Source: an uncultured Gammaproteobacteria bacterium (GTDB taxonomy: Bacteria > Patescibacteriota > Microgenomatia > Levybacterales > UBA12049). Taken from it: 64,000 nucleotides of DNA. How positions within the stretch are numbered: the first letter of the stretch is position 1; each line of letters opens with the position of its first letter. Below the pieces are notes generated by a model that saw only the letters and a program-made list of their open reading frames with translations, searched no databases and was not told the origin of the DNA. The translations under genes were made by a program, and so were the position numbers. The stretch covers positions 370,361-434,360 of the forward strand of contig CAZAZU010000001.1 in assembly GCA_964490105.1 (NCBI GenBank), read 5' to 3'. This document shows, in pieces, positions 2,877 through 40,590 of this stretch.

Positions 2877-2957
2877 AAATTAATTTTCAATTTACAATTT
2901 TTAATTTTCATTGAATTTTTAAACATTTAGATTTCATTTCAAATTTTAAATTAAAAA

Positions 2958-4097: not shown

Positions 4098-4137
4098 ATA
4101 GTATACGTAAAAAAATGAAAGGGAGAAAGAGGGCGCG

Positions 4138-5160: not shown

Positions 5161-5208
5161 AGATTATAATTATATCTTTTGATACACTTTTATTCAAATT
5201 TTGGAGTT

Positions 5209-8693: not shown

Positions 8694-8702
8694 ATTTTAA
8701 AA

Positions 8703-9890: not shown

Positions 9891-9910
9891 ATATTAATTA
9901 TACTAATTAA

Positions 9911-11230: not shown

Positions 11231-11242
11231 ATTTTATTCAAT

Positions 11243-13206: not shown

Positions 13207-13214
13207 ATTTTCTT

Positions 13215-19663: not shown

Positions 19664-20329
19664 CTAGAGGGCGCCTTTTCCTGAAATCATTGCGCCGGGA
19701 GTTTTTGAGATTATTGATAAATCATAAAGAACAGATCTTTTCTTAACATACTCAGCATCCATTTTTATTCTCTTATCAAAGTTTATTTCCGATCGGCCAG
19801 ATACCTGCCAGTATCCAGTAACGCCGGGACGCACTGAAAGTACAATTTTTACAGATTCGCGAGTTTCCGGATATCTCATTTGTTGATCTCTAAGCTCATC
19901 CGGATAGTAGGCTCGAGGCCCTACAAGACTCATGTCTCCTTTTAGAATATTAAAAAACTGCGGTACTTCATCTAAAGAATGTTTCCTGATGAAATGCCCG
20001 ACGTTAGTAATTCTCGGATCGTCTTTTAATTTATAACTTCCTTTTTTGTAATCTCTGTATAGCTCGGCAAATTTAGGATTTTCGCGCAATAGTTCATGCG
20101 CATTTTCAATCATGGAGCGGAACTTATACATCTTAAAAAGTTTTCCATTTTTTCCAACCCTCTCAGGAGTATCTGCGAGAATTGGTCCCTTTGAATCAAG
20201 CTTAATTGCGATTGCTACGATGATAATTATTGGAGAAAAAATAACTATAAGGATTAACGAAAAAACTATATCAATAAGTCTTTTAAGAATCTCATAAATA
20301 ACACTTTTTCTGACTTCAATAATAGGCAT
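19664..20329 (-). CDS. Monotopic phosphoglycosyl transferase (bacterial sugar transferase, PglC/WbaP C-terminal-domain type); initiating enzyme on undecaprenyl phosphate
   Basis: A single N-terminal re-entrant helix is followed by GPILADTPERVGKNGKLFKMYKFRSM and DELPQFFNILKGDMSLVGPR, which are Bac_transf signatures. Confidence 0.85.
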   Translation of the reverse strand: MPIIEVRKSVIYEILKRLIDIVFSLILIVIFSPIIIIVAIAIKLDSKGPILADTPERVGKNGKLFKMYKFRSMIENAHELLRENPKFAELYRDYKKGSYKLKDDPRITNVGHFIRKHSLDEVPQFFNILKGDMSLVGPRAYYPDELRDQQMRYPETRESVKIVLSVRPGVTGYWQVSGRSEINFDKRIKMDAEYVKKRSVLYDLSIISKTPGAMISGKGAL

Positions 20330-21520: not shown

Positions 21521-22606
21521 TCATAAATTTGTTTTGTTTTCTAGAAATTTCTCTAGATTTTTTTTGAAATTCTCATACGAGAATCTCTCAGAATTTCCTA
21601 TTATATCAGCCTTATTATATAGTCTTTCATCAAATCTTTCCAATACTTTATTTAATGACTCAGGGCTTTGTTCTAGGAAAAACTCTCCCGTCACTCCTTT
21701 TAATACTATATCCAAAGCTCCTCCGCTTTTAAATGCAATAACTGGTTTTCCAAATAATTGCGCTTCTGCCATTACCAGTCCGAAATCTTCATTTCCTGGA
21801 AAAATTAAAGCTTTGCAATTTTCATAGTAATACCTAAGCTTCTCGTCTGTCAATTCTCCAAGAAATTGTATGTTCTTATTTGCTTGTTTTTTAAGAGAAA
21901 CCATCATGGGTCCTCCTCCCACAATCTTAAGGGGTAATCCATTCTGGTTAAATGCCGCAACTGCTAAGTCCACTCTTTTATAGTTGCTAAATCGAGACAT
22001 TCTGGATACCAAAAGAAAATAATCATTTTTTCTTTTTTTAATTTTTCTTGGCCTTTCTAACATTAAAGGAGGAAAAATTATTTCACTATCCCTATCGTAA
22101 TATTTTTTAATTCTGCTTTTTACTTCAGTTGAAATCGCAATCATATGATCAGGTCTTTTCGAAGCGACGAGATCCCAATTCCTTAAGTACCTTACGGTTC
22201 CCTTGGATAAGAACTTAAAAAGTGGGCTTTTAAAGTATTCATCATATCCACTCCATAGATATCTAGTGGGAGTTAAGCAGTAGCAAATATGCATTGTTCC
22301 CGGGTTTGTAATTATTCCTTTGGCTGCCTCACTTGTTACTGAAATTACTAAATCGTAATCATCAAAGGAAAAATTTTCAAAAGCGACCGGCATAAAAATC
22401 GCCAAAAGCTCATTATATTTTCGGAGCTTTGATGCGCTCTGAAGAAATGAAGTTTTAATTTCAAAGTCATTTGCCCAAGAGCTTCCTTCAAAACTCCGGA
22501 CTGAAGTAAATAAAGGTGCGTCTGGAAATATCCTATGCAGTGCTAAAAGTACCCTTTCTGCCCCACCCCATTTATTTACCCTGTCATAAACCAAGGCTAC
22601 TTTCAT
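21521..22606 (-). CDS. Glycosyltransferase family 4 (GT-B, retaining)
   Basis: The C-terminal Glycos_transf_1 pattern (FPGNEDFGLVMAEAQLFGKPVIAFKSGGALDIV) and EX7E-like motif are present. Confidence 0.8.
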   Translation of the reverse strand: MKVALVYDRVNKWGGAERVLLALHRIFPDAPLFTSVRSFEGSSWANDFEIKTSFLQSASKLRKYNELLAIFMPVAFENFSFDDYDLVISVTSEAAKGIITNPGTMHICYCLTPTRYLWSGYDEYFKSPLFKFLSKGTVRYLRNWDLVASKRPDHMIAISTEVKSRIKKYYDRDSEIIFPPLMLERPRKIKKRKNDYFLLVSRMSRFSNYKRVDLAVAAFNQNGLPLKIVGGGPMMVSLKKQANKNIQFLGELTDEKLRYYYENCKALIFPGNEDFGLVMAEAQLFGKPVIAFKSGGALDIVLKGVTGEFFLEQSPESLNKVLERFDERLYNKADIIGNSERFSYENFKKNLEKFLENKTNL

Positions 22607-23693
22607 ACAATTTATGTGTTTCCTGGGCAGTTTTTTTCCACGAATATTTATTTGCCTGCGCTATACCTTTTTTAACTAACTTTTCTTTTTCCTGGGAACT
22701 TAAACTTAGAACGTATTTCATTTTGGAAAGTATATCATCACTTCTATAATGATCAAAGTAGATAATTGAATCTCCAAATATTTCGTGGTGTACGGGTATA
22801 TCCGATGCCAAGACAAGGCAATTATTTTCTAATGCTTCTAAAGGAGGCAGGCTAAATCCCTCCATAAGACTTGGCCTGACTAGAGCAATGGCTCCTTTAT
22901 AAAGCTCTGACAATTTTTCATCATTTACATTCTCAAGAAAGTGTACGCTTCCTGTCTTAAAATTTTTCTTGACATGATCTTTTAATTTTTTATATAGAAA
23001 ATCGTTGCTTCCTACAAAAACTAAATTAAGCGATGAATCCTCCTTATGCAGTTTCCTAAAAGATTCAAGCAATAATCCTACATTTTTATGCGCAAATACA
23101 TTTCCCACATAAAGAAAATAATTTTTTATACCTTCTTCTTTCCCTGCTGAACTTCTTAAATCATCTGCAGCTTCATAAATAACTTCAATTTTCGATTTGT
23201 CTGTTTTCAAAGTATCCATAATATCTTTTTTTGTAAAGTCAGATACTGCGATAATTTTTTTCGAAATTCTGGCTGCATTTGTGACAACAATTCTGTAGGC
23301 AATCACTTTAAATCCCAAAAGCCATAGGGGAAGAGTAGAAGATGCGCCACTTACATAGTGGTGGAAAATTAAATCATGAATTGTAACTATATATGGACGC
23401 CTGTAAAAAACCGGGATACTAAAATAAGGAAAATGCATTAGATCTAATTTTTCTTTTTTTATAACACGTGGGAAAAATACTTGTTCTCTTATTGAGTGCC
23501 ATCTATATTCTGCATTCACTATTTTCCAATTTTTATTTTTTATTTTTTCTTCTATTTCTTTTCTGTCTTTTTTTTGAACAAACAAAACATATGAATTATT
23601 TTCATCAATTTCAGACAAATTAAAACAAAGATTTCGTATGTATCTTCCTACCCCGGTCTGCCCCCAAAGCCTTACATCAATTCCAATCTTCAT
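22584..23693 (-). CDS. Glycosyltransferase family 4
   Basis: The N-terminal MKIGIDVRLW...GVGRY (Glyco_transf_4) is followed by a C-terminal GT1 domain. Confidence 0.8.
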   Translation of the reverse strand: MKIGIDVRLWGQTGVGRYIRNLCFNLSEIDENNSYVLFVQKKDRKEIEEKIKNKNWKIVNAEYRWHSIREQVFFPRVIKKEKLDLMHFPYFSIPVFYRRPYIVTIHDLIFHHYVSGASSTLPLWLLGFKVIAYRIVVTNAARISKKIIAVSDFTKKDIMDTLKTDKSKIEVIYEAADDLRSSAGKEEGIKNYFLYVGNVFAHKNVGLLLESFRKLHKEDSSLNLVFVGSNDFLYKKLKDHVKKNFKTGSVHFLENVNDEKLSELYKGAIALVRPSLMEGFSLPPLEALENNCLVLASDIPVHHEIFGDSIIYFDHYRSDDILSKMKYVLSLSSQEKEKLVKKGIAQANKYSWKKTAQETHKLYESSLGL

Positions 23694-24562
23694 ACAATGT
23701 TTTTTCTTTTTGCTAAAAATAGTTTTAAGTCAACTCCAAAATACACTAACCAATTTATGAAAAAGGGATAATTTTTAGAATAATGTTTTTTATAGAAAAT
23801 TTTCATTGTTGAATAAAAATATTCTAAGGACTTACTTCTTGTAGTTTTATTTGCACCTGATTTTTCCTGACTATGTTTTTTTATGCCAGAAGAAACTCCT
23901 TTTACATGCATGATTTTTACTTCAGGAACATACATTACTTTAAATCCGGCTTTTTTTACTCTGAAACATAAGTCAATGTCCTCACCATATAGAAAATATT
24001 CTTCATCAAAATACCCGATCTTTTCTAATACTGATTTTCTAATAAACATGAAAGCTCCCACTACTGAATCTACTTCATGGGTTTTTGTCATATCCCTATC
24101 TGTTAAGTGATAGAGCTTGTCATTCTTAAAAAAGAAGTACAGAAATGATGCAAGGAGAGTTGGAAAACCCCTGTGAGAAGCGGCATCAATTGAGCCATCA
24201 GTTTTTTCAACCTTGGACGACGCAATTCCAACTTCTTTATTTTTTTCCATAAAATCATAAATATATGAAAGTGTACCACTCGGAACTTCGGTATCAGGAT
24301 TTAATGTCAAAATATATTGCGATTCTGATTTTCTTAATACTAAATTATGCGCTTTACCAAAACCTAAATTATCTTTATTAATTATGAAATTAAATTCTGG
24401 AAATTTATTTTTTGCTTTTTCTGCACTTCCATCAGATGAAGCATTATCCACAACATAAACTTCAAAATCAATTTCTTGTTTTACTTTTCTTAAACTTTCC
24501 AAACAGCTTATTAGATACTCACCCGCATTATAATTAACAATTGAAATTGTAAGTTTTTTCAT
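23690..24562 (-). CDS. Glycosyltransferase family 2 (GT-A)
   Basis: ISIVNYNAGEYLISCLESL...VVDNASSDGS and a downstream DxD region identify GT2. Confidence 0.8.
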   Translation of the reverse strand: MKKLTISIVNYNAGEYLISCLESLRKVKQEIDFEVYVVDNASSDGSAEKAKNKFPEFNFIINKDNLGFGKAHNLVLRKSESQYILTLNPDTEVPSGTLSYIYDFMEKNKEVGIASSKVEKTDGSIDAASHRGFPTLLASFLYFFFKNDKLYHLTDRDMTKTHEVDSVVGAFMFIRKSVLEKIGYFDEEYFLYGEDIDLCFRVKKAGFKVMYVPEVKIMHVKGVSSGIKKHSQEKSGANKTTRSKSLEYFYSTMKIFYKKHYSKNYPFFINWLVYFGVDLKLFLAKRKNIV

Positions 24563-25728
24563 TAATTTAAGCTTTCATAAACTCTATCAAGTTTTTCAGA
24601 AATATTTTTCCAATCAAAGTTTTTTTCTATAAACTTTCTTCCGTTTCTGGAAATCTTTTCATATAAATAATCATCAGTTAAAAGTAATGAAGTTTTGTTT
24701 GAAAACTCCTCAGGCTTATCGCTAATTATTATCTCCTCATTTTCAGTCGCATTAATCCCCTCATTTCCAAGCTTTGTAGTCACTACTGGAGTACCGCACG
24801 ACATAGATTCTAAAATTTTAAAATTAGTTCCTCCTCCTACCCTAATTGGACTAAGTAAAATATCGGCTTCTTGAAAAATTTTTTCAGTTTCGTTAGAAGC
24901 ATTTTCGTCAAAAACAATTGAACCATCTTTAAGACTTTTAATAGATTCTGGAATCTTCTTTCCAACTACCCAAAGAACTGCATTAGGATTATTTTTTACA
25001 ACCTTTGGCCAAATATTTTTTATAATATAAACTATTGAATCTTTATTTTGAATCCATTTAAAATCTCCGATAAATAAAACTTTTTTATTTTCTTTGTCTT
25101 TAATTATTTTTTTCATTTTAAATTTATCTACATCAACTCCGTTTGGTATTACATCAACTTTTCTTCCCATTAAAGAGGCTTCAATTTCAGAGACAGCGAT
25201 AAGTCTTGTGGCTTTTTTCCAGCATACTCTCTCTGCTCTCTTTAGCTTCATTATATCCAGATATAAAAGCGGGCGCCCGAAAATTAAACTTTTCTTAACA
25301 AATTTTTCATAAACCTCATACTCTATATTATGCTCTGCTAAAACTACAGGTAAATCTGTCTTAGGCAAATTTTGCATTACATAAAAAGTCTCTACGTGAA
25401 TAAGATCAAATTCTTCCTCACTTATCAGTTTTGAAATTATTTTTTTCATTTCTAGACTCTTATGTCCAGTTATAAGGAACGGGTCTAAGGAAAAACCGGT
25501 TTTAAGTATATTTCTTGCACTCCACTGTTTTTTTCGCTCAACTGTATAAACTTTTTCACAAATCTTACCTACTTCATCAATATCTTTTTGAGATTGTGTA
25601 TCTCTTTTCTCGCAAACTAAAGTTATCGAATGTTTTTCGGACAGATTTTTTATTAAATTATAAAGCCGGATTTGACCGCCGGAAAAAAGAGGAAAAGGCA
25701 GATATGACGAAACAATTAATATTTTCAT
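24562..25728 (-). CDS. Glycosyltransferase family 4
   Basis: C-terminal ESMSCGTPVVTTKLGNEGI on a GT-B two-domain layout. Confidence 0.75.
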   Translation of the reverse strand: MKILIVSSYLPFPLFSGGQIRLYNLIKNLSEKHSITLVCEKRDTQSQKDIDEVGKICEKVYTVERKKQWSARNILKTGFSLDPFLITGHKSLEMKKIISKLISEEEFDLIHVETFYVMQNLPKTDLPVVLAEHNIEYEVYEKFVKKSLIFGRPLLYLDIMKLKRAERVCWKKATRLIAVSEIEASLMGRKVDVIPNGVDVDKFKMKKIIKDKENKKVLFIGDFKWIQNKDSIVYIIKNIWPKVVKNNPNAVLWVVGKKIPESIKSLKDGSIVFDENASNETEKIFQEADILLSPIRVGGGTNFKILESMSCGTPVVTTKLGNEGINATENEEIIISDKPEEFSNKTSLLLTDDYLYEKISRNGRKFIEKNFDWKNISEKLDRVYESLN

Positions 25729-27176
25729 GGGCTTTTTCTTAAATCAAAAATTATATATTCAGAAGTTTCTTCTAAAACTACATAGTCCTTTTTAAAATAA
25801 TCGTCTGCAGGTTTTGGATTTGCAATCACTAGATAATCAGCTCCCAAATCTTTAACCATTATATTTAAATCATCCTGATAACTAGACCAGCCTTTTCTTT
25901 TTGTTTGGTATAAAAATGATGTATCACCTTCATAATTTGCTATAACTAAACTATCCTTAGGCGTTAACTTATCAACTGCATTACCCGCTGTAATAATTGC
26001 TCGATTATTTATATTAAAATAATCTCTTACCTGATACCAGCTAAACATAAATGCAAAACCTAAAACTCCTATAAAAACTGTTGGGGCCAGATATTTGTTC
26101 GCCAAATTTTTTCCGAGTGTTAATAAAAAGTCTCCTCCAAGTCCAGCAAAAATACATAGAGTTGGAAGAATAAGAATTTGATAATAATCGTGCTGGATGT
26201 TTCCCCTAGCGATTACAGTTACATATAGAATTGAAGAAACAAGAAATGAATAAAAGAATAAATAACTGGTTTTTGTTTTTGCAACTAAACCAAGCACTAC
26301 CAAGAATACACCCCAATATCCCAAGATTAGTTTTGAAATTCTTTCAGCAAATATCCAATTAAAAAAGGCTCCCTTAAAGCGCATTCCGCCTTCATTAAAA
26401 AGCCAATTAGAACTAGGAATTCCTTCCGGGAATTGTGTCATCCATTGCCTCCAGCCAATCATTGGAAAAAGAGAAGCTGTACCAAACACCCAGAGATAAG
26501 GATTTAGAAACATTTTTAATCCAAACGCTTGATATGCTAAATAAATCATCGGTAGTGTAAAAAAAGCTGCAAAAGGTTTTAGTAAAAATGATACTCCTGT
26601 AAATAAGATTGATAAAGAATAAAATATTATTTTTTTATATTTCATTTTTTCCGACAGCCATAAATCGAAAAAATAAATCCCTGCAAGAATTGTCGCTGCG
26701 GTTGAAGTATCCGGCAAAATAGTTCTACCGTAATAAATACTGAATGGAAGAGCTGCAAAAACAAAAGCTCCAATAAGCCCCGCTCTTTCATTTTGGTGTT
26801 TTTTAAGAATTAAATATATTAAGAGAACTGTTAAAAGAGAAGCAAAAATAGTAATCAATCTTCCCCATTGCTCTAATGATAAAACAGGAAGCAACTTATA
26901 AAATCCTCCTTGGAACAAATTATAAATTGGAAATTCTACAAACCTGTATCCTTCTGGGTTATTTAGGCCAGATGGAACATTGGATAGATCGTGGTATTTA
27001 GGACGAAGTAAATTAAATCCATCTTGGACAAAAATTCTTGAGACTGATGACGTATCTGCCTGCCTCCAGGAATGCCAATCAGCAATCGGGCTATTAAATC
27101 TATAAAGTCTTAAGACAAACCCCAGAATAAGTATACCTACAAGAAGCCCCAGATGAATTCTTTTCATTAAGTTCAT
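25725..27176 (-). CDS. Polytopic membrane protein, GT-C-like (ArnT/PMT_2-like lipid-linked-sugar-dependent glycosyltransferase)
   Basis: More than 10 predicted TM helices. An acidic first-loop motif (ADWHSWRQAD) follows TM1. The size and topology match GT-C enzymes. Confidence 0.5.
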   Translation of the reverse strand: MNLMKRIHLGLLVGILILGFVLRLYRFNSPIADWHSWRQADTSSVSRIFVQDGFNLLRPKYHDLSNVPSGLNNPEGYRFVEFPIYNLFQGGFYKLLPVLSLEQWGRLITIFASLLTVLLIYLILKKHQNERAGLIGAFVFAALPFSIYYGRTILPDTSTAATILAGIYFFDLWLSEKMKYKKIIFYSLSILFTGVSFLLKPFAAFFTLPMIYLAYQAFGLKMFLNPYLWVFGTASLFPMIGWRQWMTQFPEGIPSSNWLFNEGGMRFKGAFFNWIFAERISKLILGYWGVFLVVLGLVAKTKTSYLFFYSFLVSSILYVTVIARGNIQHDYYQILILPTLCIFAGLGGDFLLTLGKNLANKYLAPTVFIGVLGFAFMFSWYQVRDYFNINNRAIITAGNAVDKLTPKDSLVIANYEGDTSFLYQTKRKGWSSYQDDLNIMVKDLGADYLVIANPKPADDYFKKDYVVLEETSEYIIFDLRKSP

Positions 27177-27188: not shown

Positions 27189-30100
27189 CTAGGGCATTAT
27201 CAAATCAGGAGGAGGACCAAACGGTCTTTCTATCTCGATCACATTCCCACTATCGGTAAATCTAAATACCGGGTGAGATAACGATAACCCAGCGGTATTA
27301 AGCGCAGCCTCATCAGAGGAATGAATAAACACTCTAGCATCGTCATTTTTAAATGCAAACCAAACAGCCTCTGAAAGACCAACCGGGAATACCCAGGCTT
27401 GACCATCTTTTGTAGGAACATTAACAAAATGGAACTGAGTATCTTTTTGCGACCAATATGATGTGTATTGTGACTCCATAGAAATAAAGAATCTCTTAGT
27501 TTTATTTCCTGCCTCATGCCAATTAAATAACGTACTTTGAATTTGAATTATGTGAAATAGTGCAAATACTAAAATGGCAACAGTTGTAAAACCAATAGCG
27601 ATTTCCTTACCGCTTTCTTCTAAATATCCATAAACTTTTTTAAGAATTATTACGAGAATAAATACAACTCCCATCGTTGATAGGTAGCTATATCGTGAGG
27701 TCATATTACCAAGCCCCAGGAATGGTAGAAGTGAAATTACAAAAAAGATAAATCCAAATACAATTATTCTTTTCTCCCAACTGCTAAATCTATGTGCGAA
27801 TAATTTATAGATGACCCAGCAAATTAAAGCAGGAATAGGAACAGCAATTAAAGAAATAATAATATTCTCTCTGGCAAAATTTCTAAGAGACTCATATAGC
27901 GGGAATGACATCGGACCCAAAACACCCAATGAAAAATAACCAAATACATTTCCGATTAAATTAAATGGAAGGTTAATTGGATCATAACTATAATCTCCGC
28001 TAAACCAATGACTCTTAGAAACCACACGTAGCACTAAATATCCTAGAATTGGAATCCATAGAATTAAATAATCGAATTTTCTTAGAAGACTTTTAATGCT
28101 TCCCATAAATCCATCCTTAAATATCTTGTATGCAAAAATAAGAAGTGGAGCTACAACTCCTAACTCATGGAAAATCAGAGCAAAACAAATAGAAATCAGG
28201 GAACCAATTAAGTAATAAATTTTCTTTTTTTCTTCCCAATGAATGAACAAAAGAATTGCTAATAATGAAAATACAGCGTTAAATAAATGCCCAATTGAAG
28301 AAATCCAAAATACATTTTCCAAAGGACCGCTTAGAATTAAGAATGTAAATGCGGCAAGTGCTGCTAGCTTAACTCCTCCAAATATTTTTCTTGCAATTAA
28401 GAAAAATAATGATGCTGCCATAAAATGCAAAACTAAGGATGAAAAATGATAAACAACTTGGTTAAGCCAGAATATTTGATACATAAGATAGAAATATATC
28501 TTCATCCCTGGTCTATAAAAGAATCCATCTGAATTAACAAAATAATTAACAAATAAATTTGGCGCAGAACAGTTACCACAGTCTGCTGCCCATTTAAGCC
28601 ATGTGAAATCATCAGCAACGAAATAATTTCCAATCATTGGAGCAAACAAAACAAGACAGAATACAAATAGATATGCTATCACTGCGTAACTCGAGGTCAG
28701 TGATTTTTTTATTTCATTTAAGAGCGTGAATGAATGTCTTCGATACATTTCAAGTGTTGCAATTGAAATTCCAACTAAGATCCAGAGTATGAATGCTATT
28801 TTAGAAGCCTCAAAAACATCAATAAGTGTCGCATTCAAGAACAGTCCTATTATTCCTGCTGATAAACCAAGAATAAAGCTTTTTGCTAGAGGTGAATCGA
28901 TATCAGGATATATTTTCTTTGTATAAATTCCTAGAATTAAGAATAAAAGTAAAAATGAGATAAACCCTAAGAGCCCTGTCTCACCAAGTATTCTTAAGTA
29001 ATTATTGTCTACCGCTAAACTTACTGATCCATAACCGCTTCCAACAAGTAAATTTCTCTTAAATGCTTCAATTGCTCTTGGCCATTCTCCTTGAAATCTA
29101 GTAGTAAACGACAAATCATAGGCTGAAGCTCTTTTAACAATAAAATTTCCCCTAAGAACTAGCGCTGAAGAAGATGACCCAGCATTGGATGGAAGTTCTA
29201 TAAAAAAACTATTTGCTCTCTTTACAACCGGTGATAAATAAAGATTTGTGTATCCTGTACCTTGAGGCAAATTTTCCCCAGTTGAAATATTTACTGCTGT
29301 TAAGATCGGCACTTCTTGGGGAATAAATCTATAGGGAAGAATTATCGCATCCTCTGAATCAACTTCTTCTTTCTGGCTGGCTCTAATTGCATCCGCAAGC
29401 TCTACTTGGTCTTTTACTGTTCTTTGAAGAACGATTTTATCCTTAAAATATTCTTTTGGGACAAATCTAACATGCCCAATTGATTCACCTGTCGCAGCGT
29501 CTACTAATACATCAGCCTCCGAAACTGTACTTTTAAATCGATCAAAAAGAGACGACTGAAGAGTTATAAAAAGAACTCCTCCGATTAGGGCAACTGGAAT
29601 TAAAGCTAAAAGTAATTTCTTTTTTTGAAATAATAGTACAAAACCTAAGGAAATAAATAATACAAAGAAGGATACTCGAGAAACAGTCATCAGAAGAAGA
29701 GCGACCCCAGCTAGAGAAATAACAACAACTAGTATTCGTACAAACCAATTCTTAAGCCCAAATGCAAGACTCACGAGAATTGGAATTACCAAAACCAGAT
29801 ATGCAGCCAAATCATAATGCCCTGCAAAAGTTGAAGGAACCCGAGATAATTCTGATAGCGTGATCGGAGTTCCCTTCGCAAACTCCTCGTTCATAGTTAA
29901 GAATGCAGGAAAACCTAAGTATTTTTGACCAAACCCATAAAAAATAACCGCTACTAAAGTAATAATCATAACCGACACAACGTATGGCAAATATTTCCTG
30001 TCTTTCATTCCGTGGTAACCTATGAAAAACAAGCTCATGTATTCGATGTGACGCACCAAACTCAAGAAAGCGACATTTGCAAAAGCGTTTGAGACAGTGG

Positions 30101-30416
30101 GAAAAATAAGAAGAATTCCATGAATCGTAGCTACAGCTCCAATAACCCAAAAAATTAAGATAGGAATAGTTAGCGGAGTTTTTAAGGTAATTTTCTTTCT
30201 TACGAGTAAGGTTAGCCACGAAAGAATTACGAAAAATACTAAAAAGTCCTCAACTCTTATATAAACCCATGTATTTTGAATATCTAAAAGGGGTAGTTTT
30301 GGGTAAAGCGGAATAAAAATTAACAAAAAGAGACTCTCAAGAAATAAAATATTTTCCCAAGTCCATTTAAAAAATTTTTTAGTCCTGTTATTTAAAAAGT
30401 TCGAGAGCTTGGCCAT
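27189..30416 (-). CDS. 1075-aa fusion: Wzy_C-family domain (O-antigen ligase/polymerase/PglL-type) fused to a second GT-C-like polytopic domain with C-terminal soluble domain
   Basis: The N-terminal third has Wzy_C-like helices (MTVSRVSFFVLF), a large periplasmic loop, and a GSGYGSVSLAVDNNYLRILGETGLLG motif that fits the Wzy_C HNxYLxxxxExGxxG signature (here D in the His position). The C-terminal two-thirds begins NYFVADDFTWLKW (DD/DE loop motif), has more than 12 further TMs, and ends in a ~150-aa soluble domain. Confidence 0.6.
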   Translation of the reverse strand: MAKLSNFLNNRTKKFFKWTWENILFLESLFLLIFIPLYPKLPLLDIQNTWVYIRVEDFLVFFVILSWLTLLVRKKITLKTPLTIPILIFWVIGAVATIHGILLIFPTVSNAFANVAFLSLVRHIEYMSLFFIGYHGMKDRKYLPYVVSVMIITLVAVIFYGFGQKYLGFPAFLTMNEEFAKGTPITLSELSRVPSTFAGHYDLAAYLVLVIPILVSLAFGLKNWFVRILVVVISLAGVALLLMTVSRVSFFVLFISLGFVLLFQKKKLLLALIPVALIGGVLFITLQSSLFDRFKSTVSEADVLVDAATGESIGHVRFVPKEYFKDKIVLQRTVKDQVELADAIRASQKEEVDSEDAIILPYRFIPQEVPILTAVNISTGENLPQGTGYTNLYLSPVVKRANSFFIELPSNAGSSSSALVLRGNFIVKRASAYDLSFTTRFQGEWPRAIEAFKRNLLVGSGYGSVSLAVDNNYLRILGETGLLGFISFLLLFLILGIYTKKIYPDIDSPLAKSFILGLSAGIIGLFLNATLIDVFEASKIAFILWILVGISIATLEMYRRHSFTLLNEIKKSLTSSYAVIAYLFVFCLVLFAPMIGNYFVADDFTWLKWAADCGNCSAPNLFVNYFVNSDGFFYRPGMKIYFYLMYQIFWLNQVVYHFSSLVLHFMAASLFFLIARKIFGGVKLAALAAFTFLILSGPLENVFWISSIGHLFNAVFSLLAILLFIHWEEKKKIYYLIGSLISICFALIFHELGVVAPLLIFAYKIFKDGFMGSIKSLLRKFDYLILWIPILGYLVLRVVSKSHWFSGDYSYDPINLPFNLIGNVFGYFSLGVLGPMSFPLYESLRNFARENIIISLIAVPIPALICWVIYKLFAHRFSSWEKRIIVFGFIFFVISLLPFLGLGNMTSRYSYLSTMGVVFILVIILKKVYGYLEESGKEIAIGFTTVAILVFALFHIIQIQSTLFNWHEAGNKTKRFFISMESQYTSYWSQKDTQFHFVNVPTKDGQAWVFPVGLSEAVWFAFKNDDARVFIHSSDEAALNTAGLSLSHPVFRFTDSGNVIEIERPFGPPPDLIMP

Positions 30417-31266
30417 AAGTACTTATGTAATAACTATTATTAGTGATCTTGCCTAATAAGTAAACACTTTTTGCTTTAGTAAAAAGAACCGCTCTAACTA
30501 TTCTATAGCTAATCTTACTTTTATGTTTCTTATAAAAGTAAAGAATGCCTTTATATATATTTACTATCGCAAATGTCCTACTACTGCTTCCCTGTTCTTT
30601 ATGCATCACCAAAACGTCCGGGAAAAAATAGGTATCAAGTCCAGTCTTTTTCGCTCTGTACGAGATCTCCATATCCTCCATGTACATGAAGATGTTTTTA
30701 TCAAATCCGCCAATCCGCTCATAAACACTCCTGGAAATCATAAGGCACGCTCCAGCTACCCAGTCAACTTTAGTTATCTTTTTTGGGCTACTTTTTAATA
30801 ATCCTAATTTTTCTCCCCCAAAAATAAGGAGAAAAAAATTAAAAAGATTATAAAATTTTCCAGCAGAAGGCTGTGGGGATTTATCATAATTAGATAGTTT
30901 TCCGCCAATTATTCCAGCTTTCGGATTTTCTTTCAAAAAATCCACCATCTTAAGAAAGCCCTTATCTCCAACTTTTGTATCAGAATTTAGAAACAATATA
31001 TAATCACCCTTAGAGTTTTCTGCTCCTAAATTACATCCCCTTCCAAAACCCAAATTTTCTTTGCTTTTTATGAGTTTTATGTGACTTTTACTTGAGAGGT
31101 ATTTCTCAATTCCCTTAACAACTTCCTCGCGTGATGCATTATCAACAACTACAATCTCGACGACCTCATCCTTAAGTTCTTGAGCGAACTGCTCCCTGAG
31201 TGAATCTAAGCATTCGATGATCAAATCCAGCGTGTTATAGCTTAATATTACAATTGAAAGTGTCAT
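30388..31266 (-). CDS. Glycosyltransferase family 2
   Basis: LSIVILSYNTLDLIIECLDSL...VVDNASRE and FLNSDT (DxD) identify GT2. Confidence 0.8.
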   Translation of the reverse strand: MTLSIVILSYNTLDLIIECLDSLREQFAQELKDEVVEIVVVDNASREEVVKGIEKYLSSKSHIKLIKSKENLGFGRGCNLGAENSKGDYILFLNSDTKVGDKGFLKMVDFLKENPKAGIIGGKLSNYDKSPQPSAGKFYNLFNFFLLIFGGEKLGLLKSSPKKITKVDWVAGACLMISRSVYERIGGFDKNIFMYMEDMEISYRAKKTGLDTYFFPDVLVMHKEQGSSSRTFAIVNIYKGILYFYKKHKSKISYRIVRAVLFTKAKSVYLLGKITNNSYYISTYGQALELFK

Positions 31267-31820
31267 TATCTAAACCAAGCAGCTCTACCTAATTTATATT
31301 GAGGGTCTTTCAAGCCTCTTTCTCCAATTTCTTTTGCAGGAACTCCGCCTACTATTTTATACTCCGGGACATCTTTTGTAACTACCGCACCAGCGCCTAC
31401 CACCGCGCCTTTTCCGATTTTGACCCCAGGAAGAATTATTGCGCGGGGCCCGATAAAAACATGATCTCCTATTTCAACAGGGGCTGTTATCGCCTTAAAT
31501 TTTTCGTCATTTATGTCGTGCTCTGAATTATAAATCATAACACCTGTTGCTATATCCACATGATTTCCAATCTTTAATTTATCTCTTCCATCAAGCACAG
31601 CCCACTCACCAATTATCGAATCATTCCCAATCTCTATTCCGCTTGAGTTATAAGTAGAAAGAGCCATATGAATCGTAGAACCGCGCCCTATTTTCATTCC
31701 AAAAACTCTATAGGAAAATCTTCTTAAATGATGACTTGGTATAAATCCAACTATCCAGATTAAAAATCCATTTACAAATTCCAGTCCGATAGCGCTTAAT
31801 CTTCTATTTATTTTATCCAC
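31266..31820 (-). CDS. Hexapeptide-repeat (LbH) sugar O-acetyltransferase, WbbJ/WcaF/MAT-like
   Basis: Left-handed beta-helix repeats (IGNHVDIATGVMIY, IGDHVFIGPRAIILPGVKIGKGAVVGAGAVV). The N-terminus is hydrophobic. Confidence 0.75.
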   Translation of the reverse strand: MDKINRRLSAIGLEFVNGFLIWIVGFIPSHHLRRFSYRVFGMKIGRGSTIHMALSTYNSSGIEIGNDSIIGEWAVLDGRDKLKIGNHVDIATGVMIYNSEHDINDEKFKAITAPVEIGDHVFIGPRAIILPGVKIGKGAVVGAGAVVTKDVPEYKIVGGVPAKEIGERGLKDPQYKLGRAAWFR

Positions 31821-33055: not shown

Positions 33056-33589
33056 TCATATTGCAGGATATATTACTTTTATTTTATTTGAATCAATTTT
33101 TAAAATCTCCTCTATGTCTTTTTTACTAGATTCTGAAATTGTAAAAACAATACTTGACTCCTTTTTTAACCATTTTATTTTTCTTTTTTGAGTATCGATT
33201 ATTTTCCCTGCAGTTTCTTCTGGATTTTTATAAATTATTAGGTCGTATATGATTGTCGCCTTCTTCGCTTTTTTAGTAGGAGGCTCTGTCCAGTCAGATG
33301 TAATAAAAATATCAATGTCTCCGATTAACCATTCCACAGGAAGGATGTGCAATCTGTTCCAGAGCTGGTCTAGTAAAATTGGCGGGAACTTAAATGTTTT
33401 AATTGTAACTCTCGGGCTACTCTGAATATTAAATAGAGAAAGATCCAAATCCCGTCTTAAAGAAGAAAAAAACAATACGTACTCATTGTTCTTATCTTCT
33501 TTAAGTAAGTTTTCAACTAAATTTATCAGGTAATTTGAAACACCAGTTTTTGAATAAACAACCTGACTGACATCAATTCCAATTCTCAT
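33056..33589 (-). pseudogene. GT4 N-terminal-domain-only fragment (probable remnant of a tandem GT4 duplicate)
   Basis: MRIGIDVSQVVYSKTGVSNYLINL resembles the N-terminus of the adjacent full-length GT4 (MKIGING...). The ORF ends after ~177 aa, before any Glycos_transf_1 domain. A 109-bp non-coding stretch with a small hairpin follows. Confidence 0.45.
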
Positions 33590-33823: not shown

Positions 33824-34750
33824 CTAGCTGGAATATTTTAAGAGAATTTTAGAATCGTTTTCATTTTTGCTGTTTATGTTAAGAACTAAATCTGCAATTA
33901 ACCCTGTAAACCCTGCCTGAAGACCAGAAATAATTAGAAGCATTCCAAGGAAAAGTAATGGACGTCTTCCTATTGACTCTCCCTGAAAATGAATAAATGA
34001 AAGATAAAGGAGGATTATTAATCCAAGAAAAACTAAAGCTCCTCCAAAAAATCCGAAGAAATGAAGCGGGCGCTTACTGTATTTGCTTAAAAAAACCATT
34101 GTCATCATATCTGGCATTTGAGTAAGAACTTTTATAGCACCGTATTTACTCTTTCCCCATTTTCTTACATCATGAACAACAGGAACCTCTGTGACACGAA
34201 ACCCTTCCTGCGCTACTAAAAGCGGTATGAATCTGTGCATTCCACCATATAAATTTACAGATTTCGCAGCTTCACTAATATATAATTTCAAACCACAATT
34301 ATAGTCATGAAGTCTAACTCCCCAGAAAGTTGAAGCGACTAAATTAAAGACCTTTGAAAAAATAATTTTCGCAAGCGAATCTTTTCTGTCTTTTCTCCAG
34401 CCAGAAACCATATCAAATCCTTCTTTATGTTTTTCAATTAGCTTGTGGACCTCTGACGGCTTGTCCTGAAGATCAGCGTCCATTGTAACGATCAGATCCC
34501 CTTTAGCTTTTTGAAATCCAAAAGTTAATGCTTCTGCCTTTCCATGATTTCTCCTAAATGAATAGATTCTGACATTTGAGTCTTTTTTTTCTAGATCTTT
34601 AATAAGTTCAAGTGTTTTATCCTGTGAACCATCATCAATAAAAATTATTTCGTATTCTTTAGATAAAATTTTTGCGTGCTTTAATAACTCTTCGTAAAAA
34701 TGAAGAACACTTTCCTCTTCGTTAAAAACTGGTACTACATAACTAATCAT
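33824..34750 (-). CDS. GT2 polyprenyl-phosphate sugar synthase (DPM1/GtrB/CsbB/ArnC-like) with C-terminal TM hairpin
   Basis: VVPVFNEEESV, IFIDDGSQDKT, RRNHGKAEAL and IVTMDADLQD are signatures of this family. Two C-terminal TM helices match the GtrB/ArnC architecture. Confidence 0.8.
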   Translation of the reverse strand: MISYVVPVFNEEESVLHFYEELLKHAKILSKEYEIIFIDDGSQDKTLELIKDLEKKDSNVRIYSFRRNHGKAEALTFGFQKAKGDLIVTMDADLQDKPSEVHKLIEKHKEGFDMVSGWRKDRKDSLAKIIFSKVFNLVASTFWGVRLHDYNCGLKLYISEAAKSVNLYGGMHRFIPLLVAQEGFRVTEVPVVHDVRKWGKSKYGAIKVLTQMPDMMTMVFLSKYSKRPLHFFGFFGGALVFLGLIILLYLSFIHFQGESIGRRPLLFLGMLLIISGLQAGFTGLIADLVLNINSKNENDSKILLKYSS

Positions 34751-34778: not shown

Positions 34779-36815
34779 TCATTTCCTGTCTCTTTTTGCT
34801 AAATTTATAATTAAGAAAAGAATAATTACCACAAAAGCTGACAGACTCACTATAATCCCTTTATTAACCCAATCTTGAGGTTTGTAGTAGACTTTTAGGT
34901 TATAGTTGCCATCTCTGGGTAGGATAAAACTATTGATTTTATTTTTATATACAGCGCTACCAATCACCATATCCCCGTCTACCGCAACCCAACCAGGGTC
35001 ATAATTTTCAGAAAAAATTACCGAATCTCCTCTTCTGCCTCCTTCAATATTAATTCTGTATTCAACAGGATTAATGTACTGATATTTTATTTTTGCATCG
35101 ATATTTTCAGAACCAGAATTAAAAATATAAAAACGGCTTTTTGGCTGCTTAACCTCAAATAAAACTAATTTCCCGAATTTACTTTTTTCTTCTAAAAAAC
35201 TCGATTTTCTAAGACTATTAATAGTATTTTCGTATAAAACGATATCAGGATTTCCATCATTCACAAAAATCTGGTTATTAATATCATCTGGTACCACTAT
35301 ATATTTAACTGAAGAAAGATCCACCAATCTCCTATCTAAACTGACCTGGTTAACTAGTTTTTTGTTGTCATAAATTTCATACAATGCGCGGGCAGGAATA
35401 ATTGGATTCGTAGGTGAGTAATAGGAATAAGGAGTAAAATTTGGAACCCAAAGAGTTCGATAATAATCTTTATCTTTAATCAGATAATTTGCCAGATCAA
35501 CATAGTTCCCGGGGATACTCCTAGAAGTAAATGTCCCCGTTAAGCCTCCCGTAAACGTCTGGTGAATCAATAAACCCCAAATTACAATAAAAATTAATAT
35601 TAAAATTTCTTGATTTAAGGGTTTTGACTTAATCTTTATTAGCTTTGAAAGTAGGAAAATACTATATGGTATAAGAACTGAATAAGCGACAGCTATTAAG
35701 CCATACCATTTTGTAGGATCTCGAAACATCAGAAATCCTGGGATATTGTTAAACAACCATAGGTATATGTTTCCAAACGGAGCCGTAGAACCCTTAGCCA
35801 GAAAAATACCTAAGATCCCGATAGCTAAAAATGTTAGAACAATTCTCTTCTCAAGTAAATTTCTGGTGTTAAGTAAAATTAAGCTCAAAAATCCAATCAG
35901 GGGAATTAGCAAAAATTCCGGACGCATAAAGTGTGTTTTTCCAAAAATATTTTCAGGCCAATTAGGATGAAGCAGTGAAATTGTGTTCTCTAATCGAGCA
36001 AAACTTAAATAATCAACCATACCTTGATTTGTATAAGATTCTCCTAAATTACTTAAAGGATTTTGCCCTGTAAGAACGAATGGAACAATCCAAAAGAAAT
36101 TTAAAAACACAATTACAATTCCAGGAACTATCAAAAATGAAACTAGAGTTTCTTTTAAGCTTTTAAAGAAATTATTGCTCAAAAGAAAAATAATGTAATA
36201 AATACCTACTATAAATAATGATATGTAACCAATTCTGGGATCGATCATCAACTGAACAGAATATAAAATCCCAGCGACAATTGAGATAGCTATAATCTGT
36301 TTTGAAGCTAAGTTTTTTAAAATGTTCGCAAAACCAAACAAAACTAGTGGGATTAGTGAGTATGCTACCCCAACACCTATTTGACCGCCTCCAATCGTCA
36401 TTAGAATATATGTATTTGTTGTAAATATCAGAACAGACAATGCGGCAAGTGCATTGTTATTTATAATTATTTTTTTAAAAAAAACGAATGATCCGATAAG
36501 CGAGAGCAATAAAAATGGAAAATACCAAACAATTTTTTCCGAAATATTCCATTCAAATCCTGCCAGTTTTAAAAGAATTGCCGGAGCAAGTTGCGCATAT
36601 GTGCTTAAGGGAAGCAAAAACGTTATATTATTACCCATTCCATTAGAAAAATTAGCATCCCATGCATAAAAATAAAGCGGAGAAGAAGAGATAGCTTGGG
36701 GAAATTTAAAAGTCCAATCGCCCGTTGATAAAGATTCCAATGAAAACCAGGATCTAAAAATAAATATTACTAATAAAGTAATAATTAGCACTACTATTTT
36801 CCCAATTCTACTCAT
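34779..36815 (-). CDS. Large polytopic membrane protein, GT-C-like (candidate GtrC/YfhO-type transferase using the polyprenyl-P-sugar made by the adjacent GT2)
   Basis: 678 aa with roughly 14 TM helices and a C-terminal ~170-aa extracytoplasmic domain before a final TM. It lies directly upstream of the GtrB-like gene, as in gtrABC and csbB-yfhO pairs. Confidence 0.45.
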   Translation of the reverse strand: MSRIGKIVVLIITLLVIFIFRSWFSLESLSTGDWTFKFPQAISSSPLYFYAWDANFSNGMGNNITFLLPLSTYAQLAPAILLKLAGFEWNISEKIVWYFPFLLLSLIGSFVFFKKIIINNNALAALSVLIFTTNTYILMTIGGGQIGVGVAYSLIPLVLFGFANILKNLASKQIIAISIVAGILYSVQLMIDPRIGYISLFIVGIYYIIFLLSNNFFKSLKETLVSFLIVPGIVIVFLNFFWIVPFVLTGQNPLSNLGESYTNQGMVDYLSFARLENTISLLHPNWPENIFGKTHFMRPEFLLIPLIGFLSLILLNTRNLLEKRIVLTFLAIGILGIFLAKGSTAPFGNIYLWLFNNIPGFLMFRDPTKWYGLIAVAYSVLIPYSIFLLSKLIKIKSKPLNQEILILIFIVIWGLLIHQTFTGGLTGTFTSRSIPGNYVDLANYLIKDKDYYRTLWVPNFTPYSYYSPTNPIIPARALYEIYDNKKLVNQVSLDRRLVDLSSVKYIVVPDDINNQIFVNDGNPDIVLYENTINSLRKSSFLEEKSKFGKLVLFEVKQPKSRFYIFNSGSENIDAKIKYQYINPVEYRINIEGGRRGDSVIFSENYDPGWVAVDGDMVIGSAVYKNKINSFILPRDGNYNLKVYYKPQDWVNKGIIVSLSAFVVIILFLIINLAKRDRK

Positions 36816-38928: not shown

Positions 38929-40590
38929 TTAATTAATAGTACCTATAAAACTCTTTGTAATATTTTTAAATATAAATTTTTCTTCGTCGTACTCTAATGC
39001 AACCACTACATCTTTTGAAAGATTATTTACTCTAAGCGTCTCCTCAAGTTTATTTTTATTCGTAAAATATCCATAGCTATTGTCTCCAATTTTCTTATAT
39101 CCTTCATCTAATAATCCCCATAGGAAAAAGTCTGCAAAAAATGGTCCCCACTCTTTTTCATTTCCCCGAGCGTAGGTTGCCAAAAATATCATTCCAGGTC
39201 CAGATGAAAACGGAAGGACATTTTCATTAGGTATTCCAAACTCACCATTTCTGTAACAGACTTTTTTACATTTAATGTAAAAAATTGTATTTCTGGAAAG
39301 AGATGGATTTTCCTCATGTAAACTTTTCAACAAGGTTTTCCTAGCAATCCCACCATGAACTTTATCGCTTACGGATAATCTAATCTCTTGTAAAGAAGTT
39401 ATAATCAGCAGGGCAAAAACAACAATCACTGAAGTCTTCTTTATATAGTCAAGAATCCTTAATTTACTTCTAGAAACATACACGCTATGAATAAAAATTG
39501 CAAGGAAGCAAAATACCGGAAAGCTTGCGAAATAAAGATATCTGGGTTCTAAAACGCTAATGTGTCTACCTACAAAAGATAGCATGAACGCGTTAGATCC
39601 GATCCAGGCGAGGAAAAAAATTATATAATTCGCAATATCTTTTGGCTTAAATAACCATAACCATAAAGCTAAAACACTGATTATTAATCCGAAAATATAA
39701 AAAAATGCTGCATCCATGAGAGGAGCTTGACTAGTAAAATATGTATATCCTGGATATGCTTGGTGTGCGTGGTTTATAAGAAATATTACTATTCGCTCAG
39801 AATATATTAAATTCTGCACAATAAACTTGATTGGAATTGTCAAAAGATTATATTCTGCGCCACTACCGGTAATCTGCTGACTAGCGGGTAATATTGCCGT
39901 ATTCAGGCTTTGAGCAAATATTCTTATTAGAAAAGTTATAAAAACTCCAATTATTAAATAAATGAAAGATTTCGAGTTTGACTTATTAATTTTTGATTTT
40001 CCAAAAGTTAGAAGATAAACAACAAAAAGCGGAATAATAATAAAACCTTCTTCTCTAAAACAAATCGAAATAAAGAATATTAATATTAAAATTACAGAAT
40101 TCTTTGCTGTTATAATTTTTTCTTTTATGTGCGCCAAATATATAAAAAATAAGAGCATGAAAAGCATCGCCATGTCGGTTGAGTTAAATATTGCTAAATG
40201 CGTAAACGCCTGCTGCGCACGACCGTTCAGTAAAAATAAAAAAGAACAAAGAAGCGCAATTGATTTCTTAGTTGATAATTGTAAAGCTAAAGTATAAACC
40301 AATACAGAATTTAAGGAGTGAATTACAAGTTGAATTAAATAATAGAATTGTGCTTGATAACCAAAAACTTCATATAAAAATTTCCATAGAATTGAGCCAA
40401 GCGGAATGAAATGCGTTCCTTTGCTCGCGAAAAAACTCCACCAGGGAAGAGTATAGGAATTAATTGTGTCTGCGAATCCTCCCCACTCATCTTGCTCAAA
40501 ATAAGCATTTAGAAGACCATGAGTGGCAAGAAATAGGATTACAAAAAAAACCAAAAATAAAAAGACGAAATTTTTTAATAAATACTTCAC
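38929..40590 (-). CDS. Polytopic membrane protein, GT-C-like
   Basis: 553 aa with roughly 12 TM helices. The first loop has acidic residues (YFEQDEWGGFAD). It ends in a short soluble C-terminal domain. Confidence 0.45.
   Translation of the reverse strand: MKYLLKNFVFLFLVFFVILFLATHGLLNAYFEQDEWGGFADTINSYTLPWWSFFASKGTHFIPLGSILWKFLYEVFGYQAQFYYLIQLVIHSLNSVLVYTLALQLSTKKSIALLCSFLFLLNGRAQQAFTHLAIFNSTDMAMLFMLLFFIYLAHIKEKIITAKNSVILILIFFISICFREEGFIIIPLFVVYLLTFGKSKINKSNSKSFIYLIIGVFITFLIRIFAQSLNTAILPASQQITGSGAEYNLLTIPIKFIVQNLIYSERIVIFLINHAHQAYPGYTYFTSQAPLMDAAFFYIFGLIISVLALWLWLFKPKDIANYIIFFLAWIGSNAFMLSFVGRHISVLEPRYLYFASFPVFCFLAIFIHSVYVSRSKLRILDYIKKTSVIVVFALLIITSLQEIRLSVSDKVHGGIARKTLLKSLHEENPSLSRNTIFYIKCKKVCYRNGEFGIPNENVLPFSSGPGMIFLATYARGNEKEWGPFFADFFLWGLLDEGYKKIGDNSYGYFTNKNKLEETLRVNNLSKDVVVALEYDEEKFIFKNITKSFIGTIN

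Follow-up and report, generated by a model that had tools for sequence, protein, structure and literature searches.

What would a membrane protein do that unites two lipid-linked-glycan transferase folds in a single chain? The question is raised by a gene at 27189..30416 (minus strand) of a 64,000-nt stretch of contig CAZAZU010000001.1 (assembly GCA_964490105.1), hereafter the window, whose 1075-amino-acid (aa) product an earlier note had described as a fusion of a Wzy_C-family domain to a second, GT-C-like polytopic domain. The fusion proved to be genuine and conserved. Its N-terminal module (N-module) belongs to the Wzy_C/GT-C_B superfamily and is most likely polymerase-like, its C-terminal module (C-module) belongs to the PMT_2 clan of GT-C_A glycosyltransferases, and we tentatively propose that the two couple the polymerisation of a glycan with its decoration.

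The fusion gene is intact and conserved

The ORF listing of the window shows a single, intact minus-strand open reading frame (ORF) that starts with ATG and encodes 1075 aa. All motif strings previously quoted from it were recovered at the expected relative positions, namely VSRVSFF at residues 245–251, GSGYGSV at 459–465, AVDNNYLRILGETGLLG at 468–484 and NYFVADDFTW at 597–606. Three further minus-strand ORFs nested inside the coding sequence (CDS; 27239..27517, 29542..29748 and 29812..30219) are frame artefacts, as had been supposed, because they lie within a gene that has hundreds of homologues. The features of the gene are as follows.

27189..30416, minus strand: 1075-aa bimodular membrane glycosyltransferase, complete CDS (ATG-started ORF; more than 120 full-length homologues; 77/81 uninterrupted frames)
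28737..30416, minus strand: N-module, residues 1–560, a 12-transmembrane-helix (12-TM) GT-C_B fold, Wzy_C/WaaL-like (Wzy_C, IctB, Foldseek match to WaaL, hhalign)
29676..29678, minus strand: Arg247 (TVSRVSF) at the outer end of TM8, candidate residue for pyrophosphate binding (78/78; aligned to WaaL R215)
29004..29558, minus strand: extracytoplasmic loop of ~185 aa, residues 287–471, with a beta-rich insert (298–434) and bearing Arg440 (FTTRFQGEW) (AlphaFold2 secondary structure)
28965..29009, minus strand: Wzy_C C-terminal signature D470-N-N-Y-L-R-I-L-G-E-T-G-L-L-G484, with Asp at the WaaL/PglL catalytic-His position
28692..28745, minus strand: linker between the modules, residues 558–575, Lys/Arg-rich and cytoplasmic (low conservation; positive-inside charge count)
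27192..28736, minus strand: C-module, residues 561–1075, a GT-C_A glycosyltransferase of the PMT_2 (ArnT/PMT) clan (AlphaFold2, Foldseek, transitive and profile homology)
28599..28628, minus strand: first external loop motif N597-YFVADDFTW606 with the GT-C acidic pair D602/D603 (78/78 conservation)
27192..27464, minus strand: soluble alpha/beta domain of ~90 aa, residues ~985–1075 (AlphaFold2 strands and helices at 994–1061; 48% mean identity)

A search of 5.8 billion proteins returned 1584 matches, the best 120 of which are all 1049–1080 aa long, with 55–100% identity and 96–100% query coverage. Searching one genome per GTDB species, we found relatives encoded by 254 genomes; the best 80 of these loci (L001–L080), on which all synteny counts rest, match over full-length or near full-length stretches. 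Of 81 fetched loci, 77 have a frame that stays open over 1000 codons or more, and three of the four exceptions are losses at contig ends. The search for homologous fusions in related genomes that had been recommended earlier thus gave a clear positive, and neither of the objections then foreseen—no Wzy_C match, or a frameshift—was borne out. Indeed, an assembly or frameshift artefact joining two genes is ruled out by the full-length homologues and by the open frames, which stem from independent assemblies. Mean identity is lowest in the linker (36%, measured over residues 556–577) and amounts to 65% in the N-module and 52% in the C-module, a pattern that, on these sequence identities, is that of a true two-domain protein.

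Informatively named records belong to Levybacteria/Levyibacteriota, Roizmanbacteria, Gottesmanbacteria or the 'Patescibacteria group', i.e. to the Microgenomates within the candidate phyla radiation. Many of the GTDB third-party-annotation (TPA) assemblies bearing the gene carry the title 'uncultured Gammaproteobacteria', which seems to be a placeholder or a wrong label. Divergent fusions of ~1000 aa (33–48% identity) were found as well, one of them again from Patescibacteria.

Split C-halves in close relatives were considered and dropped. P0121 (534 aa), the only such candidate whose contig was recovered, maps within a 1068-aa fusion ORF (locus L081, 2475..5681) and is therefore a truncated call. 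The same holds for several 50%-cluster representatives that resemble stand-alone C-halves, and library lengths are an unreliable guide to domain architecture.

The N-module has a WaaL-like architecture

Kyte-Doolittle hydropathy and AlphaFold2 (AF2) place 12 membrane helices in residues 1–557 and a loop of ~185 residues (287–471) after helix 9, close to the ~190-aa periplasmic loop reported earlier. A long loop ahead of the last three helices characterises the WaaL-like 12-TM GT-C_B fold, and both the AF2 model and Foldseek reveal it here. The full-length model (mean pLDDT 79.1, pTM 0.76) matched the cryo-EM structure of WaaL (7tpg_B) with a Foldseek probability of 1.00 and a TM-score (target) of 0.63; all Foldseek E-values of this two-domain model exceed 1e-3, and the match is supported by its TM-score and by how specific the hit list is. 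The long outer loop is conserved at 64% mean identity and its beta-rich insert at 58%.

The protein also matches the Wzy_C-related NCBIfam model TIGR00947 (IctB; E 2.4e-8), and Wzy_C itself was matched in 20 of 27 divergent full-length relatives (best E 9.6e-10). Its own alignment to Pfam Wzy_C (PF04932), a sub-threshold one, covers residues 431–489 and corresponds to positions 75–149 of the 149-position model, i.e. runs to the model end. Judged from these sequence matches, Wzy_C homology is supported at the family level. The assignment of the N-terminal ~560 residues to the Wzy_C family is therefore upheld by the WaaL fold, IctB and the relatives, and the N-module, which has the 12-TM architecture of WaaL-like proteins, belongs to the Wzy_C/GT-C_B superfamily. 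Among the proteins of the 64-kb window, its profile found no second match.

An aspartate takes the place of the ligase histidine

WaaL and PglL enzymes depend on a His for which the target had been said to carry an Asp. At the motif level, comparison with Escherichia coli K-12 WaaL agrees: the ligase reads HNEIIEAGSLKGLMG (H338-N-EIIEAGSLK-G-LM-G) and the target D470-N-NYLRILGET-G-LL-G, with equal spacing, i.e. HNx9GxxG around H338 vs. DNx9GxxG around D470. In the 78 related loci used to count residue conservation, D470, R247, R440, N471, R475, E479, G481 and G484 are each present in 78 of 78, and D470 is invariant in alignments of both close (A1) and divergent (A2) relatives. The D470 stretch further aligns, weakly (E 0.11), to TDSIFAIIAEEVGFFG (T-D-SIFAIIAEEV-G-FF-G) of the window's own FtsW. 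The equivalence of His and Asp rests on Pfam coordinate mapping, the motif pattern, this weak FtsW alignment and the literature.

Two Arg residues accompany the Asp. R247 falls opposite R215 of E. coli WaaL in a local hhalign profile alignment that is weak (E 0.052) and spans TM6–TM9 only; a global alignment of the N-half to E. coli WaaL failed, and the C-terminal piece alone gave nothing meaningful. R440 was assigned as the second Arg from its motif position alone.

The clan in question comprises SEDS proteins (GT119), O-ligases (GT121) and inverting Wzy polymerases (GT125-129), and the ligases combine a His with two Arg residues (Meitil et al. 2024, PMC10920833). An Asp or Glu is aligned to the O-ligase His in SEDS and in all inverting bacterial polysaccharide polymerase (BP-Pol) families bar one (PMC10920833), and PglS is inactivated by a His-to-Ala exchange (PMC12800693). 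The pattern H-[NSQ]-x9-G-x2-G, with the catalytic His of GT121 and of PglL-type O-oligosaccharyltransferases (O-OTases), is absent from the target, where Asp470 stands in all 78 loci. By conservation and topology, the target instead shows what defines inverting Wzy enzymes of clan GT-C1, i.e. one or more Arg plus an Asp/Glu at the ligase-His position on the outer face. Since Asp470 occupies that position, our analysis makes the N-module most likely polymerase-like rather than ligase- or O-OTase-like.

The C-module is a GT-C_A glycosyltransferase

Modelled alone, the C-half reached a pLDDT of 89.5 and a pTM of 0.89. The first 23 of its Foldseek matches in the PDB (probability 0.98–1.00; TM-scores of 0.42–0.50 for the best-scoring ones) are all GT-C_A enzymes, including STT3 (1.9e-4), ArnT (5f15; 6e-4, TM-scores 0.48/0.46), PglB, ALG9, Pmt4, DPY19, AftA and EmbC, which identifies the fold of the C-half as GT-C_A. 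Model scans of the window protein returned no direct Pfam (PMT_2 included) or NCBIfam match to the C-module. An exhaustive phmmer search with residues 561–1075 retrieved 5041 proteins at E ≤1e-3, and among the distant stand-alone homologues of ~500 aa, the PMT_2 (PF13231) gathering score of 26.1 is exceeded by P0267 (28.9 bits) and P0236 (31.9 bits), the latter recorded as a 'glycosyltransferase family 39 protein' of a Chloroflexia genome. The C-half profile also detected the separate PMT_2 protein encoded next to the target (25725..27176; E 8.5e-7). Recent duplication of the two was considered and rejected: BLASTP found no similarity, and the profile alone detects the relationship. Characterised PMT_2-clan families use polyprenyl-monophosphate monosaccharide donors (Table 1 of PMC10920833).

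D602 and D603 directly follow TM13 and supply the acidic motif (DxD/DD/DE) that GT-C_A enzymes carry in their first outer loop. This external loop (EL1) is the best-conserved part of the C-module (65% mean identity), and D602, D603, W606, W609, R635, E700, E751, R797 and R908 are each present in 78 of 78 loci. The WWDxG motif of GT66 is missing; no WWD string occurs anywhere in the 1075-aa sequence. AF2 models put ~11–13 membrane helices in residues 576–982 of the C-half. The soluble C-terminal domain predicted by the earlier note exists, and its figure of more than 12 additional helices was a slight overcount. Its second GT-C-like domain is confirmed by the GT-C_A fold and by PMT_2-clan homology: the C-module is intact and represents the ArnT/PMT (PMT_2) clan of GT-C_A enzymes, with an activity that is predicted from sequence and models.

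A stand-alone relative of the C-module is encoded elsewhere in the window.

38929..40590, minus strand: stand-alone C-module paralogue, 553 aa (hmmsearch with the C-half profile, E 3.5e-30)

The paralogue shares D602, W606, P636, H664, E751, R797 and R908 with the C-half. It is polytopic, lacks a Pfam or NCBIfam match and carries YFEQDEWGGF as the equivalent first-loop motif.

Both modules are predicted to act on the outer face

Charge counts and the AF2 model agree on a basic N-terminus, Lys/Arg-rich short loops on the side assigned as inside and a basic linker. As 12 TM helices return the chain to the cytoplasm, where the basic linker lies, and TM13 then exports the DD loop, the invariant polar residues of both modules should all be located outside, where those of both enzyme classes would be expected. 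The pTM of 0.76 for the whole chain suggests that the two helix bundles pack side by side in a defined manner.

The gene belongs to a conserved glycan operon

The minus strand carries all gene-like ORFs of the window (≥120 aa), GC skew stays below zero over the whole stretch, and neither a tRNA scan nor an Rfam scan of the 64 kb gave a match. A dcw cluster occupies 89..14529 (FtsA, MurG, FtsW, MraY, MurA, Mur ligases, a penicillin-binding protein, MraW and MraZ), and a glycan cluster of ~44 kb extends from 17611 to the window end. Only ~3 kb separate the two, with RecO and a class II tRNA synthetase in between. The glycan cluster encodes more than 12 glycosyltransferases of families 1 and 2 (GT1/GT2), a nucleotidyl transferase, two hexapeptide acetyltransferases, methyltransferases, a carbamoyltransferase, sugar-nucleotide epimerases/dehydratases, an aminotransferase, two separate PMT_2 proteins and polytopic proteins without family matches. 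The genes of most relevance for the target are listed below.

30388..31266, minus strand: upstream GT2 glycosyltransferase, translationally overlapping the target (Pfam Glycos_transf_2, 1e-27; adjacent in 68/80 loci)
31266..31820, minus strand: WcaF-like hexapeptide O-acetyltransferase (Pfam/NCBIfam; upstream in 75/80 loci)
25725..27176, minus strand: downstream separate PMT_2 GT-C glycosyltransferase, 483 aa (Pfam PMT_2, 1.6e-10; adjacent in 70/80 loci)
21521..25728, minus strand: four syntenic glycosyltransferases, GT1, GT2, GT1, GT1 (downstream in 47–73 of 80 loci)
19664..20329, minus strand: initiating phosphoglycosyl transferase (Bac_transf, WbaP-like), maker of the primer, a sugar linked to undecaprenyl pyrophosphate (Und-PP) (Pfam 4.5e-63; TIGR03025 2.3e-76)
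33824..34750, minus strand: ArnC/PgfS-like GT2 with two C-terminal TM helices, candidate polyprenyl-phosphate-sugar synthase (ArnC 1.1e-47; PgfS 2e-45)
61646..62926, minus strand: Wzx-type flippase (Polysacc_synt_3 7.7e-10, Polysacc_synt 3.8e-8; 11 TM peaks)

Since 29 nt at the CDS start are shared with the upstream GT2 gene, only 13 nt separate its stop from the start of the next gene, and the order of the neighbours is conserved (GT1, acetyltransferase, GT2, target, PMT_2, GT1, GT2, GT1 and GT1 in ~70 of 80 loci), the target is part of a conserved operon, the simplest product of which would be a conserved polymer of the surface or wall, made along a Wzx/Wzy-type route. The two kinds of gene that accompany inverting Wzy enzymes, for a Wzx flippase and for an initiating phosphoglycosyl transferase, are both present. 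The ArnC-like GT2 (TM peaks at 235 and 267) is a candidate supplier of donors for GT-C_A enzymes. Patescibacteria, the host group of the target, are regarded as lacking lipopolysaccharide (LPS), and family scans found no LPS core genes in the 64-kb window.

Several other genes of the cluster deserve mention. Two products, of 678 aa (34779..36815, minus strand) and 755 aa (46461..48728, minus strand), combine ~11 N-terminal TM helices with a large soluble part and a C-terminal TM anchor, lack any Pfam match and are weakly similar to each other (BLASTP 3e-7, C-terminal part); in the longer one, a LGGDDTRFYYYY motif occurs early. The two probably add an undescribed family of GT-C-like enzymes to the cluster. 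The 177-aa ORF at 33056..33589 (minus strand) covers no more of a GT4 enzyme than its N-terminal Glyco_transf_4 domain and has a homologue in 61 of 80 loci; with a 234-nt gap to the upstream gene at 33824..34750, it may be a decayed or split glycosyltransferase. A DUF4012 protein with a single N-terminal TM helix (17611..19578, minus strand, 655 aa) adjoins the initiating phosphoglycosyl transferase and may act in chain-length control or export within the pathway. Finally, a NodU/CmcH-type carbamoyltransferase (40591..42378, minus strand) suggests an O-carbamoylated sugar in the product.

What the fusion may do

Building on the ORF, the two folds with their homologies, the topology, residue conservation, synteny and taxonomic range, we tentatively regard the protein as a Wzy-type polymerase whose fusion partner is an extracytoplasmic glycosyltransferase that adds side chains or caps, an arrangement that would couple polymerisation with decoration. 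The N-module is read as a Wzy-type polymerase because two Arg plus an invariant Asp are the arrangement found in SEDS and inverting Wzy proteins. A repeat unit would be started on Und-PP by the WbaP-like transferase, extended by the GT1/GT2 enzymes and flipped by Wzx. The N-module would then polymerise the flipped Und-PP-linked unit, its two Arg binding the pyrophosphate and its Asp replacing the ligase His. The ArnC-like GT2 of the cluster may make a polyprenyl-monophosphate sugar donor, from which the C-module could move a single sugar onto the same glycan, at the outer face, as a branch or cap. The chain would thereby unite polymerisation with the step that a GT-C enzyme performs in 'three-component' systems of extracytoplasmic glycosylation (reviewed in PMC9574508, PMC11127046). 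The identities of donor and acceptor, the choice of a polymerase over a ligase and the functional coupling are what we infer here. Polymerisation or ligation plus a second glycosyl transfer is the kind of function that the earlier note had put forward; its other option, a protein O-OTase, is the one we favour least, given the Asp site (PMC10920833).

Several observations weigh against this proposal. Identity of 55–60% is maintained across the whole class, while classical Wzy polymerases are hypervariable; on sequence grounds, such conservation, reminiscent of WzyE or of ligases, would suit a ligase-like role or the synthesis of a 'common' polymer better than the role of a serotype polymerase. 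The window protein itself scores 16.7 bits (E 0.0065) against Wzy_C, below the gathering threshold of 31.7, and a whole-family profile search of PDB sequences found no relative, only a chance match to CapE at E 1.2. Model confidence drops below a pLDDT of 50 at residues 436–449 and 465–470, the active-site loops of R440 and D470. As for the second step, the lipid-phosphate and lipid-pyrophosphate donor types are inseparable by fold search, STT3 and ArnT scoring alike, the ArnC-like gene is found upstream in no more than 28 of the 80 loci, and a GtrA-type flippase was not identified.

The N-module might instead be a WaaL-like (GT121-like) ligase serving a non-LPS acceptor of a monoderm, with the C-module decorating the product. 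We consider this rather unlikely. WaaL is the best solved-structure match, conservation is closer to that of ligases than to that of serotype polymerases, GT121 members with unknown acceptors exist in Gram-positive bacteria (PMC10920833), and WadA is a bimodular precedent (GT121+GT25; PMC10920833). NCBI names the relatives 'O-antigen ligase family protein', but this name derives solely from the Pfam family label. The His that defines O-ligases and PglL/PglS (PMC10920833, PMC12800693) is an Asp in 78 of 78 loci, and a cluster equipped with Wzx and a phosphoglycosyl transferase would be left with no other detected Wzy_C-like polymerase candidate.

Alternatively, the N-module could polymerise Und-PP-linked units while the C-module, in the manner of WpsJ, passes the chain or its first unit to a final acceptor—another wall polysaccharide, a lipid anchor or peptidoglycan—so that the fusion would replace a separate ligase. 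In Lactococcus lactis, the polymerase WpsI is indeed followed by the GT-C ligase WpsJ at the outer face (PMC9574508). The C-module itself is well conserved and intact, enzymes that transfer whole oligosaccharides en bloc (STT3, PglB) are among its best fold matches, the 64-kb window showed no ligase of LCP or WaaL type, and the high conservation suits a housekeeping wall polymer. However, the homology of the C-module is to the PMT_2 clan, whose characterised members use lipid-phosphate-linked monosaccharides (Table 1, PMC10920833), the GT66 motif is not in the sequence, and several other GT-C candidates of the cluster could be the ligase. On balance, this arrangement seems unlikely. Its more specific version, a single-chain 'polymerase-ligase' that builds a housekeeping wall polysaccharide and hands the growing or finished chain directly to the acceptor, is slightly more doubtful still; if true, it would replace separate WaaL/LCP-type ligases and amount to an envelope assembly route specific to the candidate phyla radiation.

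Protein O-glycosylation, with the N-module as a PglL-type O-OTase and/or the C-module as a PMT-type O-mannosyltransferase acting on S-layer or pilin proteins, appears improbable. O-OTases with a Wzy_C domain do exist (PMC12800693, PMC9829042), and the C-module is distantly related to PMT_2, with Pmt4 among its fold matches. Against this, the His essential in PglL/PglS is absent, the conserved operon consists of glycan-building enzymes only and offers no conserved adjacent gene for an acceptor protein, bacterial PMT_2 members are mostly glycolipid or glycan transferases, and no Pfam match to the MIR domains of true PMTs was found. That one module is a catalytically dead scaffold, or the ORF an artefact of assembly or frameshift, is hardly credible: it could draw on the high-identity 'stand-alone' C-half matches of the representative search, but the best of these is P0121, the truncated call noted above, the fusion is uninterrupted in independent assemblies, and the candidate catalytic residues of both modules are invariant.

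Comparison with known systems

In line with the earlier note, which did not recognise the architecture as a described one, we found no description in the open-access and bioRxiv literature of a single chain joining a GT-C_B (Wzy_C) to a GT-C_A (PMT_2-clan) enzyme, and nothing relevant there on such fusions in Patescibacteria or on Wzy or O-antigen-ligase proteins from the candidate phyla radiation. Databases list the family as 'O-antigen ligase family protein' or 'hypothetical protein', the former label probably being misleading for these proteins. Wzy-type polymerases, which are hypervariable and hard to express, are among the least understood surface-glycan enzymes; as of PMC10920833, none had an experimentally determined structure. 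A well-conserved module of Wzy/WaaL fold tied covalently to a second GT-C enzyme, one presumably dependent on lipid-phosphate sugars, may serve as a natural 'Rosetta stone' for outer-face steps that act jointly, and might be more tractable for structural work. Moreover, the conserved operon likely makes a core polymer of the envelope in Microgenomates, a group with a hardly characterised cell surface. The protein would thus offer a handle on coupled outer-face glycan assembly rather than a new principle.

With WaaL (GT121; 7TPG) and PglL/PglS, the N-module has in common the 12-TM GT-C_B fold, two candidate Arg residues, one where a TM helix ends on the outer side and one within the long loop, and the x-N-x9-G-x2-G signature; those enzymes use Und-PP-linked glycan donors, and the same is predicted for the N-module. 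Unlike them, the target has Asp for His, a beta-rich loop insert of ~140 aa and a GT-C_A enzyme fused to its C-terminal end. Inverting Wzy (GT125-GT129) and SEDS (GT119) proteins resemble it in their conserved Arg plus Asp/Glu, the outer-face position of these residues and the company of Wzx and a phosphoglycosyl transferase, but Wzy polymerases are stand-alone and hypervariable, whereas the target is fused and highly conserved. It does not fall within SEDS, having no match to FTSW_RODA_SPOVE (PF01098) and 12 TM helices vs. 10; of the window's own FtsW (2958..4097), only the D-x9-G-x2-G motif aligns to it.

The C-module resembles ArnT/PMT_2 enzymes and the GT-C enzymes of the GtrA/GtrB/Gtr* type in its GT-C_A fold, in a DD loop followed by amphipathic helices and in its small C-terminal soluble domain, and the cluster, like three-component systems, includes an ArnC/GtrB-like polyprenyl-phosphate glycosyltransferase. 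It differs from ArnT/PMT_2 in being fused behind a Wzy_C module, and its PMT_2 homology is at the transitive and profile level only.

Two systems come closest to the combination as such. WadA of Brucella/Mesorhizobium (PMC10920833, PMC9938171) likewise places a Wzy_C-type transferase and a second glycosyltransferase in one chain, working on the same glycoconjugate; its partner domain is a soluble nucleotide-sugar-dependent GT-A, whereas that of the target is a polytopic GT-C with a predicted lipid-linked donor on the same outer side. WpsI and WpsJ of L. lactis (PMC9574508) resemble the target in the succession of a polymerase and a GT-C enzyme, acting at the outer face on a flipped lipid-linked oligosaccharide in a monoderm wall pathway. 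The likeness drawn here is one of function; WpsI and WpsJ are separate proteins with undecaprenyl-phosphate-linked intermediates, in contrast to the single chain and predicted Und-PP linkage of the target. Both modules and their general chemistry are known. The novelty lies in their fusion, in a WaaL-like fold with an Asp-type site, in the insert rich in beta strands and in the group of organisms concerned.

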